Source of the DNA: Promethearchaeia archaeon | Lineage (GTDB): Archaea; Asgardarchaeota; Lokiarchaeia; Sigyniarchaeales; SOKP01 | Reading direction: 5' to 3' | Assembly (NCBI GenBank): GCA_029856105.1 | Contig: JAHQWH010000189.1 | Coordinates: 32,001-96,000 of the forward strand | DNA length: 64,000 bases | In this document: one piece after another, positions 4,988 through 55,327 of the stretch | Numbering within the stretch: position 1 is the first letter of the stretch | Layout of the letters: the number at the start of each line of letters is the position of its first letter | Made by a program: the position numbers and the translations under genes | The notes under the pieces: model-generated | What the model was told of the DNA's origin: nothing | The model's database searches: none | The model's input: the letters and a program-made list of their open reading frames with translations, nothing else

Positions 4988-5650
4988 ATGCATGGCATTG
5001 ATAAAATATTTATTGAAACTAATGAAATTAGGCTTGAAGCCGAGTTTTTTCAGTTGAAAAACTCGGTTGTTTTAATTTGTCACCCACATCCTCAATTTTT
5101 CTGGGTTTGAAACCCTAAAAAGGGAAAATATGGGGGCAATATGTACAACAATGTCGTATCTGGCGTTTTTAATATGTGTGTTCAAAATAAAATTTCATGT
5201 TTACGGTTTAATTTCAGGGGAGTAGGAAGTTCAACAGGAAGTCATACTAGTGGAAAGGGCGAGTTAAGCGATGTGGAAGCTTGTATTGATTTTTTAATAA
5301 CCGAGAAAAATATTGAAAAAATAATAATTTGTGGTTATTCCTACGGCGCTGCTATCGGGTGTTCTGTTGTAAATTTTTCTAAGAAAATAATTGGTTATTG
5401 TGCAATTTCTTTTCCTTGGGATTTTATGGGCTCAAAATATAAAAAACTTTCTCAAACTAAAAAACCAAAATTGTTTATTCAAGGGAATCGAGATACTATA
5501 GCACTCTATGAAAATTTTGAAAACCATTATAATTTCTATTTCGAACCAAAAAAGTATAATATTATTAATGGAGCCGACCACTTTTACTCGGGATTTGAAG
5601 AAAATGTCGCACAAGAAGTAAGCGAATTCTACAATTCGATTACAAAATAA
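4988..5650 (+). CDS. Alpha/beta hydrolase, spliced: join(4988..5094,5128..5650), 209 aa
   Basis: ATG 4988 gives MHGIDKIFIETNEIRLEAEFFQLKNSVVLICHPHPQ; removing 5095-5127 yields the family motif HPHPQYGGNMYNNVV; downstream RFNFRGVG.S.G, GYSYGA nucleophile, QG..D and GADHF. Confidence 0.88.
5095..5127 (+). other. Candidate 33-nt bulge-helix-bulge mRNA intron
   Basis: Central helix UCCU(5089-92):GGGA(5122-25), bulges CAA(5093-95) and AAA(5126-28), inner helix UUUUU:AAAAA capped by a GGGUU/AACCC hairpin, outer helix CCCA.A:U.UGGG; contains in-frame TGA at 5108-5110. Confidence 0.85.
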
Positions 5651-8867: not shown

Positions 8868-10049
8868 TTAATAGTAATTAAAAGATCCAAATTCTGATTT
8901 TATTTCTAGTTGGTTTTTGTTCTTATGAGACGATTTTTCACATTGCCCGATGATTTTTGATTCGATGTTGTATTTTTTAGCAATATCCATAATTTCTTTA
9001 GCAATTGACTCATCACAACAAATTTCCATTCTATGACCCATATTAAACACTTGATACATTTCTTTCCATAAAGTTTCTGAAGATTTTTTTATAATTTCAA
9101 ATATTTTGGGAATTTTAAAAAGATTATTTTTAAGATAAGTCATACCTTTACCAAAATTGAGAATTTTCGTCTGGCCCCCTCCCGTGTTATGTATTATTCC
9201 GTGAATTTCCTCTCGATATTTTTTTAGTACATCCAACAATAATGGAGCATAAGTTCTAGTCGGAGACAATAAAGCTTCTCCTACAGTCAAACTCAATCCT
9301 TTGATCTTATCGGTAAGTTGATAATTCCCAAAAAAGATAAATTGTTCATCAAGGTTTTGATCATAACATTCAGGGAATTTGTTATAATATGCATGAGATA
9401 GAACTCCATGTCTGGCTAAAGTCAATCCGTTACTTCCTATTCCGCTATTAAATTCGTCTTCATACGATGCTTTTCCATCACTAGCGAATCCAACTATCAC
9501 ATCTCCTGCCTTGATGTTTTCAGCATTAATAATATCTTCTCTTTTCATACTGGCAAAAACTGAGGCATCAATTAGTAGAGTTTTTACAATATCTCCTACA
9601 TCAGCAGTTTCGCCTCCGCACATTACGACATTTAGACCAAATTCAGACAGCTTTTCGCTATATGTAAAATATTCTTTAATTATTGTACTAATAACTTCGC
9701 CCGAGATAAACCGTTTATTTCGACCGATATTATTAGATATAAAAAAATTACCAGTAGCTCCAACGCACAACATATCATCAATATTCATAACAATAGCGTC
9801 TCTTACAATCCCCCTAAAAACAGATATTTTGTCCGTTTCTTTATAATACATATAAGCTAGGCTTGCTTTTGTTCCTGCTCCATCTGAATGAAATATTGAA
9901 CAATAATCATCCCTCATACCTACATCTTGTACTATTTTACAAAATGCTCCGGGGAATAATCCTTTATCAATCGATTGGATTGCTTTATGAACATCTTCCT
10001 TTTTTGAGGAAACCCCTAATTGAGAATATATATCTTTTTCGTCAGACAT
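8868..10049 (-). CDS. purM: Phosphoribosylformylglycinamidine cyclo-ligase (AIR synthase)
   Basis: DGAGTK, GGETADV, GSNG.TLAR, LSPTRTY, MYQVFNMG motifs. Confidence 0.9.
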   Translation of the reverse strand: MSDEKDIYSQLGVSSKKEDVHKAIQSIDKGLFPGAFCKIVQDVGMRDDYCSIFHSDGAGTKASLAYMYYKETDKISVFRGIVRDAIVMNIDDMLCVGATGNFFISNNIGRNKRFISGEVISTIIKEYFTYSEKLSEFGLNVVMCGGETADVGDIVKTLLIDASVFASMKREDIINAENIKAGDVIVGFASDGKASYEDEFNSGIGSNGLTLARHGVLSHAYYNKFPECYDQNLDEQFIFFGNYQLTDKIKGLSLTVGEALLSPTRTYAPLLLDVLKKYREEIHGIIHNTGGGQTKILNFGKGMTYLKNNLFKIPKIFEIIKKSSETLWKEMYQVFNMGHRMEICCDESIAKEIMDIAKKYNIESKIIGQCEKSSHKNKNQLEIKSEFGSFNYY

Positions 10050-42013: not shown

Positions 42014-42627
42014 ATGGGAAGGAGAAAAAGAAAGCAACAATCTTATAAAAGAGTCAAAACAGTCCCCAAAATTTTTACTTGCCCAAACAGGTAATTATGG
42101 TTTTCCCATTTACCTTGGATTGTGGGGAAAAGGCAATAAAAGTAGAAAATTTACGAAAAAGTGTTATAGCTACAGTGAAATGTGGTCATTGTGGTTTAAC
42201 AAAGGAAGTTCTGGTTAATTCCATATCAGAACCTGTTGATGCTTTTGGAGATTTTATTGATATTCATTATGCTGATCAAGAACTTCAGAGATTAGAAAAA
42301 CGCATTGAGAAATTAATAAAACAAAACGAATGGGGGGAACTTGCATTATCCTACTCAATTTTATCGGATATTTGTAAACTTAAAGTTGTTCAAGCTTTAG
42401 AAGACGAAGATAAAGTAGATCTTGATGAGGTTAATAAATGGAAAATTAAAGTTGAAGAATATAAAAGGCTTGAAAAAGATGCTCTACTTCAATTAGACAC
42501 GCTTGAATTGGAAAAGGGTATTAGAACAGACGACGAATCTTTATTTTCAGAGCACGATGAGAGTGATATGAAAAAAGAAAAGAAAATTGAAGATATCTTT
42601 GACGATCCTGGTTTTCTTGAATTTTAA
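42014..42627 (+). CDS. elf1: Transcription elongation factor Elf1, spliced: join(42014..42088,42121..42627), 193 aa
   Basis: Exon 1 MGRRKRKQQSYKRVKTVPKIFTCPN + exon 2 CGEKAIKV...VKCGHCGL...EPVDAFGDFID gives the Elf1 basic N-terminus, Zn ribbon and helix; unspliced exon 1 stops at TAA 42092-42094. Confidence 0.9.
42089..42120 (+). other. Candidate 32-nt bulge-helix-bulge mRNA intron
   Basis: Central helix CCAA(42083-86):UUGG(42115-18), bulges ACA(42087-89) and AUU(42119-21), inner helices GGUAA:UUACC and AUGG:CCAU, outer helix CUUGC:GUGGG. Confidence 0.88.
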
Positions 42628-44555: not shown

Positions 44556-45014
44556 TCATTGGGTGTTTCTTTTAGCGAATAAGGATTTTAACTCACCCAT
44601 AATAGCCCCTCTTAAACTTACAGGGCTGGCTGGACGAGCTCCGCCAGGACCTCCGGGCGGTGGTGGACCTCCAGGTGGGCCTCCAGGTGGACCTCCAGGT
44701 GGACCTCCAGGTGGACCTCCAGGTGGGCCAGCTGGGGGCGGTGGGGCACTACTTGGGGCTGTAGGCGCAGCAATGACTGGAGCTGCCCCCGTACCTCTCG
44801 TTCTAAGTGCCGAAACATCATTATTTATAGAATTGATTCGCGATTCTAATGTTGACATTCTTTGACCAACAACCGCTAAAGATTGATCTACTAAATCTGG
44901 TATCCTTAGAATCATTGACATCATTTTTTCAACAATATCGCCAAACGTATTCAATTTTTCTTCAAGAGGGGCTTTTTTTGTTTCTTGCATGAAATTTGCG
45001 AATTCTTCGGCCAT
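44556..45014 (-). CDS. Coiled-coil / poly-proline (GPPG)n / amphipathic-helix protein
   Basis: Heptad region, APPPPAGPPGGPPGG... tract, C-terminal SLRGAIMGELKSLFAKR. Confidence 0.8.
   Translation of the reverse strand: MAEEFANFMQETKKAPLEEKLNTFGDIVEKMMSMILRIPDLVDQSLAVVGQRMSTLESRINSINNDVSALRTRGTGAAPVIAAPTAPSSAPPPPAGPPGGPPGGPPGGPPGGPPGGPPPPGGPGGARPASPVSLRGAIMGELKSLFAKRNTQ
44662..44730. repeat. 12-bp tandem repeat GGTGG(A/G)CCTCCA, five full copies plus a partial, encoding GPPG repeats
   Basis: Directly visible; GC-rich island in an AT-rich background. Confidence 0.95.
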
Positions 45015-53854: not shown

Positions 53855-55327
53855 ATGAATGTAATTAAGATTGATGAGAACATTTACGAAATACCGCCAA
53901 AAACTTTAATGGCGCGTGTAGAAGGCAAAATCGCGAAGTTTCAAATGAAAGTGCCGGTACATATTTATGCGAACGAGTACATATTGGAAAAGATCAAGAA
54001 CGACAGAACGCTTGATCAGATTAGCAACGTTGCTTGTCTTCCAGGAATACAGAAGCATGCAATTGCGCTCTCCGATGCTCATCAAGGATATGGATTTTGT
54101 ATAGGGGGTGTTGCTGGAACTGACGCCGAATCGGGTATGATTTCGCCGGGGGGTGTAGGATACGATATTAATTGTGGTGTAAGGTTATTAAGGACAAACC
54201 TTCACCTTAAAGACATCAATAGCTCAATTCCCAGTTTATTAAATGTTATTTTTAAGAATATACCATCAGGTTTAGGAAGTAAAGGTAAATTAAATATAAG
54301 TTATTCAGATTTAGATAATGTATTAGATAATGGTTTGAATTGGGCTTTAGAAAATGGTTATGCGATTGAAGAGGATATATTGCACTGTGAAGAAAACGGT
54401 TTTTTAAAGGATGCTAATTCAAAAGTGGTTTCCCAGAAAGCTAAGCAGAGGGGGTTAAAGCAACTTGGTTCTTTAGGAAGTGGCAATCATTTTATAGAAA
54501 TCCAGAAGGTTGATAAAATCTACAATGATTCTATCGCAAAAAAATTAGGAATTTTTGATAAGGATCAAATAACAGTTATGGTTCATACAGGGTCGCGAGC
54601 TCTTGGTCATCAAGTATGCACCGATTCTTTACGAAATGTCGAACAGGCAATGAAAAAATACGATATCAAAGTTCCTGATCGCGAATTAGCTTGTGTACCA
54701 GCTGATACTCCCGAAGCAAAAAATTATTTAAGTAGCATGGCGTCTGCTGCAAATTTTGGGTTCAACAACCGTCAATTAATTACCCATTGGTTAAGACAAT
54801 CTTTTCAAGATTATTTTAGAAAGAGTTTAGACGAGCTAGACTTTAAATTAATTTATGGTGTATGTCATAATATTTTAAAAATAGAGGAACACGAAGTTAA
54901 TGGTAAAAAAATGAAATTAAATGTTCATAGAAAAGGAGCAACCAGAGCTTTTCCACCAGGACACCGAGATCTACCGCAAGATTATAAAAATATTGGTCAA
55001 CCAGCTTTGATTCCTGGTACTATGGGATCAGCTTCCTACTTATGCGTTGGAAGGCCAAAAGCGATGGATCTTTCTTTTGGATCCACCGCTCATGGATCTG
55101 GTAGAGTAATGTCAAGATCCAAAGCTAAAAAAATATATTGGGGTTCTAAAGTTAAAGAAGATTTAAAAAATAGAGGAATAATTGTTAAAGCTGCTTCACC
55201 TAAAATAATTGCTGAGGAAGCTCCAGGGGCATACAAAGATATAGATCAAGTAGTACAAGTAAGTCAAGACCTTGGAATCATAGAAAAAATTGTAAGGTTA
55301 ATCCCAATAGGGGTTGTAAAAGGTTAA
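53855..55327 (+). CDS. rtcB: RNA-splicing ligase RtcB
   Basis: DAHQGYGF.IGG, GVGYDINCG, LGSGNHF.E, HTGSR, HN, HRKGATR, PG.MG..S, HG.GR, EEAP.AYK; ATG 53855. Confidence 0.97.
   Translation: MNVIKIDENIYEIPPKTLMARVEGKIAKFQMKVPVHIYANEYILEKIKNDRTLDQISNVACLPGIQKHAIALSDAHQGYGFCIGGVAGTDAESGMISPGGVGYDINCGVRLLRTNLHLKDINSSIPSLLNVIFKNIPSGLGSKGKLNISYSDLDNVLDNGLNWALENGYAIEEDILHCEENGFLKDANSKVVSQKAKQRGLKQLGSLGSGNHFIEIQKVDKIYNDSIAKKLGIFDKDQITVMVHTGSRALGHQVCTDSLRNVEQAMKKYDIKVPDRELACVPADTPEAKNYLSSMASAANFGFNNRQLITHWLRQSFQDYFRKSLDELDFKLIYGVCHNILKIEEHEVNGKKMKLNVHRKGATRAFPPGHRDLPQDYKNIGQPALIPGTMGSASYLCVGRPKAMDLSFGSTAHGSGRVMSRSKAKKIYWGSKVKEDLKNRGIIVKAASPKIIAEEAPGAYKDIDQVVQVSQDLGIIEKIVRLIPIGVVKG

Follow-up and report, generated by a model that had tools for sequence, protein, structure and literature searches.

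The elf1 locus and its insert

The stretch of DNA analysed here (the window) spans 64 kb of the genome of a Promethearchaeia archaeon (G000), and its coordinates are given on the forward strand. It carries elf1, the gene of transcription elongation factor Elf1, whose reading frame is interrupted by a 32-nucleotide (nt) insert, very probably an mRNA intron of the tRNA type (Table 1). From the ATG at 42014, the frame is open for 25 codons through CPN and then closes with Arg and TAA; the remainder of Elf1 lies in another frame from 42121. Excision of 42089-42120 yields a 193-amino-acid (aa) Elf1 in which the first CxxC is restored (CPNCG), and only once the insert is excised are the C4 zinc finger and the basic N-terminus of Elf1 (PF05129) present. 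Databases hold a truncated Elf1 that begins at the ATG within the insert, in a cluster of 31 proteins; of the 15 members listed, 14 have a length of 176 aa.

In G000, the insert and its flanks form a strict bulge-helix-bulge (BHB) motif, i.e., two 3-nt bulges flanking a 4-base-pair helix, with helices on either side. All four pairs of the central helix are Watson-Crick (C42083-G42118, C42084-G42117, A42085-U42116, A42086-U42115), and the inner stems pair 42090-94 with 42110-14 and 42097-100 with 42106-09. The coordinates, pairs, bulges, and inner and outer stems proposed in a first-pass annotation of this DNA were confirmed base for base. Three neighbouring 32-nt excisions yield the identical peptide; the excision register is fixed by the BHB rule together with the covariation and the RNA joint described below.

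The folding energy of the 76-nt region was no better than chance (z = 0.10), and an ab initio scan of the whole of G000 (32% guanine plus cytosine) for BHB motifs with open reading frames gave as many true hits as the antisense and length-shifted controls. Motif searches by themselves prove nothing in G000. With energy and ab initio scan both unremarkable, the case therefore rests on relatives and RNA. A bacterial promoter scan was uninformative. G000, at 92% completeness, yielded no further elf1; another PF05129 match, below the cut-off on C45, was rejected as not being an elf1 ortholog.

Same-site inserts in relatives

Of the 37 elf1 genes in the genus of G000 (g1), 16 have an insert at this very site and 21 show the precise empty site, including an intron-less congener (G005) whose Elf1 is 94% identical in protein. 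Further inserts occur elsewhere in this Promethearchaeota family, where the loci surveyed were not randomly drawn (genus g28, 17; g22, 4; g27, 1). Among the genomes examined, the insert is thus found in 38, from four genera, and the precise empty site in 49. Insert lengths are 28 nt (1), 30 nt (13), 31 nt (18), and 32 nt (6); all 13 inserts of 30 nt, a multiple of three, contain an in-frame stop, and excision restores CPxCG in 38 of 38 intron-bearing genes. Given these lengths and stops, only excision accounts for every frame.

Outside the family, all 15 elf1 loci inspected were uninterrupted. In a 301-genome sample of the phylum, in which the few weak matches elsewhere were not opened, lowered Pfam scores of the kind that a split gene gives were almost confined to this family. 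All nine Joint Genome Institute (JGI) metagenome contigs retrieved with a pattern accepting both forms carry the 32-nt insert, and eight further assemblies, picked via the protein starting within the insert, hold the G000 protein allele and the insert.

Several observations accompany this survey. In genus g1 loci with 30-nt introns (L008, L010-L012, L014-L018), the intron stop is followed immediately by a start in the exon-2 frame (TAA then ATG; in one locus GTG), and unspliced RNA from these loci could re-initiate a truncated Elf1. Two records titled Nanopelagicaceae bacterium and Hermodarchaeota (L114, L107) contain a Lokiarchaeial elf1 at 85-88% identity, intron included, and are probably mislabelled. 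In genus g18 (L240-L244), elf1 encodes an extra ~52 aa in frame with additional CxxC pairs, a duplicated zinc knuckle; the corresponding 156-nt stretch was considered as an intron and rejected on this ground.

Covariation and selection

The exon strand of the central helix consists of a Pro codon and the initial base of the codon after it, which changes with the protein (Asn, Glu, Gln, Asp). The intron strand tracks it, giving A-U, G-C, and U-A at position 3 and A-U, G-C, and C-G at position 4. Counted over 12 distinct helix types, Watson-Crick pairs occupy 18 of the 24 variable positions compared with a shuffle mean of 7.2, and none of 100,000 shuffles reached 18; the helix types come from related sequences, and the shuffle result is therefore not to be read as a probability. 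Compensatory changes of this kind in other Asgard genomes were what the first-pass annotation had proposed to look for. In register, 78% of central-helix cells were paired; sliding by 1-3 bases gave 5-47%. The outer helix is closed by the last base of the first Cys codon, and this codon reads TGC in 36 of the 38 genes with the intron versus 21 of the 49 empty ones.

In intron-bearing clades, the ratio of nonsynonymous to synonymous polymorphism (pN/pS) was 0-0.09 for exon 1 and 0.06-0.39 for the first 50 codons of exon 2; both exons are under purifying selection. The intron is identical, loop bases included, in five genomes with silent-site differences of 8-20%, and its loop bases vary in other clades.

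Transcript evidence

Four runs were examined, all as contigs rather than reads. A positionally unambiguous joint of 42088 to 42121, skipping 32 bases, was present in runs X4 and X1. This is the joint predicted from the BHB and neither of the neighbouring excisions that would give the same peptide. Run X4 is metatranscriptomic RNA-Seq, with a depth of 22 and 93 nt on the short side of the joint; X1 is labelled metatranscriptomic but is whole-genome shotgun, flagged 'probably DNA', with a depth of 2.6. The X1 contig shows 0 differences from G000 over 249 nt, whereas G005, which lacks the intron, has 13 differences over that length. The X4 contig carries none of the G005 alleles; its closest sequences are intron-bearing ones (9-15 differences), none of them an exact match. 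Run X2 covered only DNA upstream. The transcript joint is strongly suggestive of mRNA splicing, and the joined contigs presumably derive from intron-bearing DNA.

Similar inserts in other genes

When 1293 orthologous proteins from two congeners (2.3 Mb) were aligned to G000 by a motif-free spliced procedure, the elf1 insert was recovered with its ends exact, and translation-blocking inserts were seen to cluster at 29-33 nt. Six more blocked genes contain inserts of 29-33 nt whose removal at the BHB register restores conserved motifs, and uL11 would require two excisions, bringing the G000 total to no fewer than nine inserts across eight genes (Table 1). Each insert other than that of elf1 was compared with one ortholog only. 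The BHB scores of the six scored automatically were 18-25, values matched by 5.5% to <0.1% of random coding positions. Two census matches were rejected, a 66-nt one on C45 as a repeat unit and one on the minus strand of C191 as the antisense of elf1. No copy of the elf1 intron was found elsewhere in G000 (no shared 16-mer).

It is likely that mRNA splicing by the tRNA machinery is routine in one family of Lokiarchaeia. Each genome would then have roughly ten to a few dozen protein genes, among them those for Elf1, uL11, and phosphofructokinase, that contain BHB introns of ~30 nt, located in conserved motifs and both gained and precisely lost; in these archaea, which are relatives of eukaryotes, protein synthesis would depend on splicing, and partial retention would be a possible control point.

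Table 1. Features of the elf1 locus and related elements. Positions are those of the window unless a C handle precedes them.
Feature	Position	Strand	Basis or remark
elf1 exon 1 (25 codons, covering the basic N-terminal run and the initial Cys of the first CxxC)	42014..42088	+	Aligns to residues 1-25 of uninterrupted orthologs
Probable BHB intron, 32 nt (hairpin core 42090-42114)	42089..42120	+	Exact empty site in relatives; joint of 42088 to 42121 in runs X4/X1; other assemblies
elf1 exon 2 (from second Cys to stop, with second CxxC and long charged C-terminal extension)	42121..42627	+	PF05129 positions 28-76, E 6e-9
Outer (exon-exon) helix, 5' strand	42078..42082	+	Partner strand 42122-42126; two G-C and three G-U pairs
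Central 4-bp helix, exon strand	42083..42086	+	Partner 42115-42118; covariation over 12 helix types
Central helix, intron strand	42115..42118	+	Pairing and covariation
First 3-nt bulge (ACA), predicted cut after 42088	42087..42089	+	RNA joint starts here
Second 3-nt bulge (AUU), predicted cut after 42120	42119..42121	+	RNA joint finishes here
In-frame TAA, stops unspliced translation after 26 aa	42092..42094	+	Reading frame from ATG 42014
ATG within intron, exon-2 frame; database start of truncated 176-aa Elf1	42097..42099	+	Annotated protein cluster
RtcB RNA ligase (matched region), likely ligase in trans, outside elf1 locus	54017..55324	+	PF01139, E 1e-167
alpha/beta hydrolase, 33-nt BHB insert with in-frame TGA	5095-5127	+	Splits HPHPQ-GG motif; absent from G018 ortholog
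Phosphofructokinase, BHB insert	C83:234-264	+	GGG-D motif
NAD-dependent epimerase, BHB insert	C74:8114-8084	-	Motif-free alignment
Thiolase-like protein, BHB insert	C39:31937-31908	-	Motif-free alignment
CobA, BHB insert	C161:49978-49950	-	P-loop
FGGY-like kinase, BHB insert	C191:9161-9190	+	Named partly by motif
uL11, two BHB excisions (32, 29 nt)	C16:9747-9778 and 9829-9857 (L256)	+	50-nt middle exon; product 165 aa

Splicing machinery

G000 encodes two EndA paralogs (C107, C12). One of them matches EndA alpha of Aeropyrum pernix best (E 3e-34) and retains Y125/H133/K164, R157, W183, and loop Lys44; these residues, including the loop Lys44 that confers broad specificity, are taken from the A. 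pernix enzyme (PMC3241643). The second paralog lacks the catalytic His, as expected of a beta subunit. The EndA encoded by G000 is a two-subunit form bearing the broad-specificity loop. An RtcB gene shares the contig with elf1, the two being 12 kb apart. Many tRNA genes of G000 have non-canonical or multiple introns and were mis-called by ARAGORN.

Proposed mechanism and alternative explanations

We consider it highly probable that the elf1 insert is a tRNA-type mRNA intron, cut by EndA at both bulges and sealed by RtcB, these two being presumably the acting enzymes. The elf1 transcript would fold locally as a BHB, the two-subunit EndA would cleave each bulge between its second and third base (after 42088 and after 42120), and RtcB would ligate the exons. 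Spliced mRNA would then give the 193-aa Elf1, complete with its four zinc cysteines, and unspliced RNA would give a 26-aa peptide. The intron would be tolerated because it is spliced, would have been precisely lost many times, and would belong to a set of ~30-nt mRNA introns in G000; it probably has no special function. The first-pass annotation had likewise read the insert as a BHB intron and placed the cuts at the same two positions; the homologs, the covariation, the selection on both exons, and the RNA joint support this reading.

Several results weigh against splicing. At -9.9 kcal/mol, the BHB form lies above the minimum-energy fold (-12.2 kcal/mol), and most lineages show one central-helix mismatch, i.e., a relaxed motif; cbf5 introns likewise show a central-helix mismatch (PMC2738675). 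RNA run X8 retains the intron at a depth of 66. Its unspliced contig has alleles identical to those of an intron-bearing DNA contig (L261), and the signal may be DNA carry-over. Runs X1 and X4 lack sample-matched DNA, and their joined contigs could come from the DNA or RNA of an intron-less strain, because precise DNA loss arises in the clade (G005) and gives the same joint. The junction check suggested by the first-pass annotation was thus answered in part: the exact joint exists in X4 and X1 contigs, but X8 keeps the intron.

Retention in X8 would also fit a cell that does not splice and makes an N-terminally truncated Elf1 from the start within the insert (ATG 42097), with or without the 26-aa peptide in trans. 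An exon-2-frame ATG is found in 14 of 16 genus g1 inserts, often directly after the stop, and the 176-aa product equals the database annotation. However, an in-frame start codon is absent from 18 of the 22 inserts in the other three genera, the product would lack both a zinc Cys of the four and the basic N-terminus, features that define Elf1 (PMC2732611), and the exon covariation and RNA joint would be left unexplained, all of which makes this explanation very unlikely. Recoding by a ribosomal frameshift, hop, or stop readthrough finds some room in the exon-2 frame, which is open back to 42079 in G000, and frameshifting is known in some archaeal genes (PMC3119797). Yet insert lengths of 28, 30, 31, and 32 nt require three different shifts, a shift or readthrough would add ~10 residues inside the CxxC or lose the first Cys, and the joined RNA would again be unexplained; we regard recoding as extremely improbable, in agreement with the dismissal of readthrough in the first-pass annotation. 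A pseudogene or assembly error, which a broken frame in a draft genome with 6% contamination might suggest, can hardly be credited at all, as the insert recurs in 17 further assemblies and 37 other genomes, both exons are under purifying selection, and no other elf1 was found. Here too the earlier judgement that the gene is no pseudogene held. Neither an intact second elf1 nor an absence of joint-bearing contigs, the refutation that the first-pass annotation had set for the intron, was encountered.

A different question is whether splicing serves as a regulated switch that sets Elf1 levels. The intron is retained across four genera and identical in five genomes down to its loop bases, X4 is spliced and X8 retained within the same study, and unspliced RNA meets an immediate stop. 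On the other hand, the loop bases differ in other clades, X4 and X8 represent different strains, with X8 open to DNA carry-over, and the gene tree contains 18 intron-state changes, 14 of them forced by well-supported branches. Similar inserts are also present in unrelated enzyme genes. A switch therefore seems unlikely, and the first-pass suggestion that splicing control couples RNA processing to elongation was not borne out, given at least 14 forced changes and 21 of 37 intron-less congeners. Ribozymes and the spliceosome were also considered. A self-splicing group I/II intron is ruled out by the size of the insert, 32 nt versus a ribozyme core of hundreds of bases, and an Rfam search gave no match near the gathering score. 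A spliceosomal intron (GT...AG) is ruled out by ends of AG..AT that are variable among relatives.

History of the insert

Elf1 introns of different genera have a mean similarity score of 4.3 versus 0.9 for introns at other sites, which favours a single old gain followed by many precise losses. The tRNA-type intron of elf1 is probably old and was probably gained once in the family; the single-gene tree is also compatible with repeated gains or gene conversion. No reverse transcriptase (PF00078) was found in the 92% complete G000.

Relation to known systems

The BHB intron of cbf5 pre-mRNA in Desulfurococcales and Sulfolobales (Watanabe 2002; Yokobori 2009, PMC2738675) is, like that of elf1, a short coding-region intron. 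Both have an exon-intron BHB, often unconventional, in which each bulge has its cut site between bases 2 and 3, and both are accompanied by a hetero-oligomeric EndA, by precise lineage-specific losses, and by omission from annotation. The elf1 insert thus shares the testable features of the crenarchaeal cbf5 mRNA intron, the RNA evidence being suggestive. It differs in gene and phylum (Asgard, Promethearchaeota), in having far more losses on a short tree, in being one of at least nine inserts rather than a single case, and in that its cleavage is predicted. A 2020 paper (PMC7714728) names cbf5 as the only other mRNA case besides a Haloferax site in a 5' untranslated region. The Haloferax site is an EndA mRNA substrate like elf1 but, unlike elf1, lies in an untranslated leader and involves a different enzyme type.

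Non-canonical tRNA introns of Asgard archaea have been described in a preprint (bioRxiv 10.64898/2026.10.13.758758, October 2026) that concerns tRNA genes only, does not contain the word 'mRNA', and states that none has so far been demonstrated to undergo splicing in an Asgard cell. These introns resemble that of elf1 in motif, clade, (alpha-beta)2 EndA, frequent turnover, and relaxed motifs. In the literature searched, which left out most subscription journals, there was no report of Asgard mRNA introns, and archaeal coding-region introns are documented there for cbf5 alone.

Elf1 would therefore be the second gene family with a coding-region intron, in Asgard archaea, with transcript-level support, and as one of many in its genome. 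The entry and exit of introns in genes becomes testable in a nucleus-free cell, in which translation competes with splicing. This bears on the origin of eukaryotic gene structure, although elf1-type introns are not spliceosomal. In practical terms, Lokiarchaeial proteomes are mis-annotated: the Elf1 listed in databases is truncated and has three Cys, and further genes appear there in split or shortened form.

The spliced elf1 product shares with the Elf1/ELOF1 family (PF05129; PMC2732611) a basic N-terminal run, a C4 zinc finger, and a single gene. In contrast to that family, the gene of this lineage is interrupted and encodes a charged C-terminal extension of ~115 aa (42250-42627, + strand), which is common to family f2 and unmatched in more distant families. 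Farther along the window, 44556-45014 on the minus strand encodes a 152-aa protein with a proline-rich stretch of PPGG repeats followed by a short helix-like C-terminus, resembling by eye WH2-type actin regulators.
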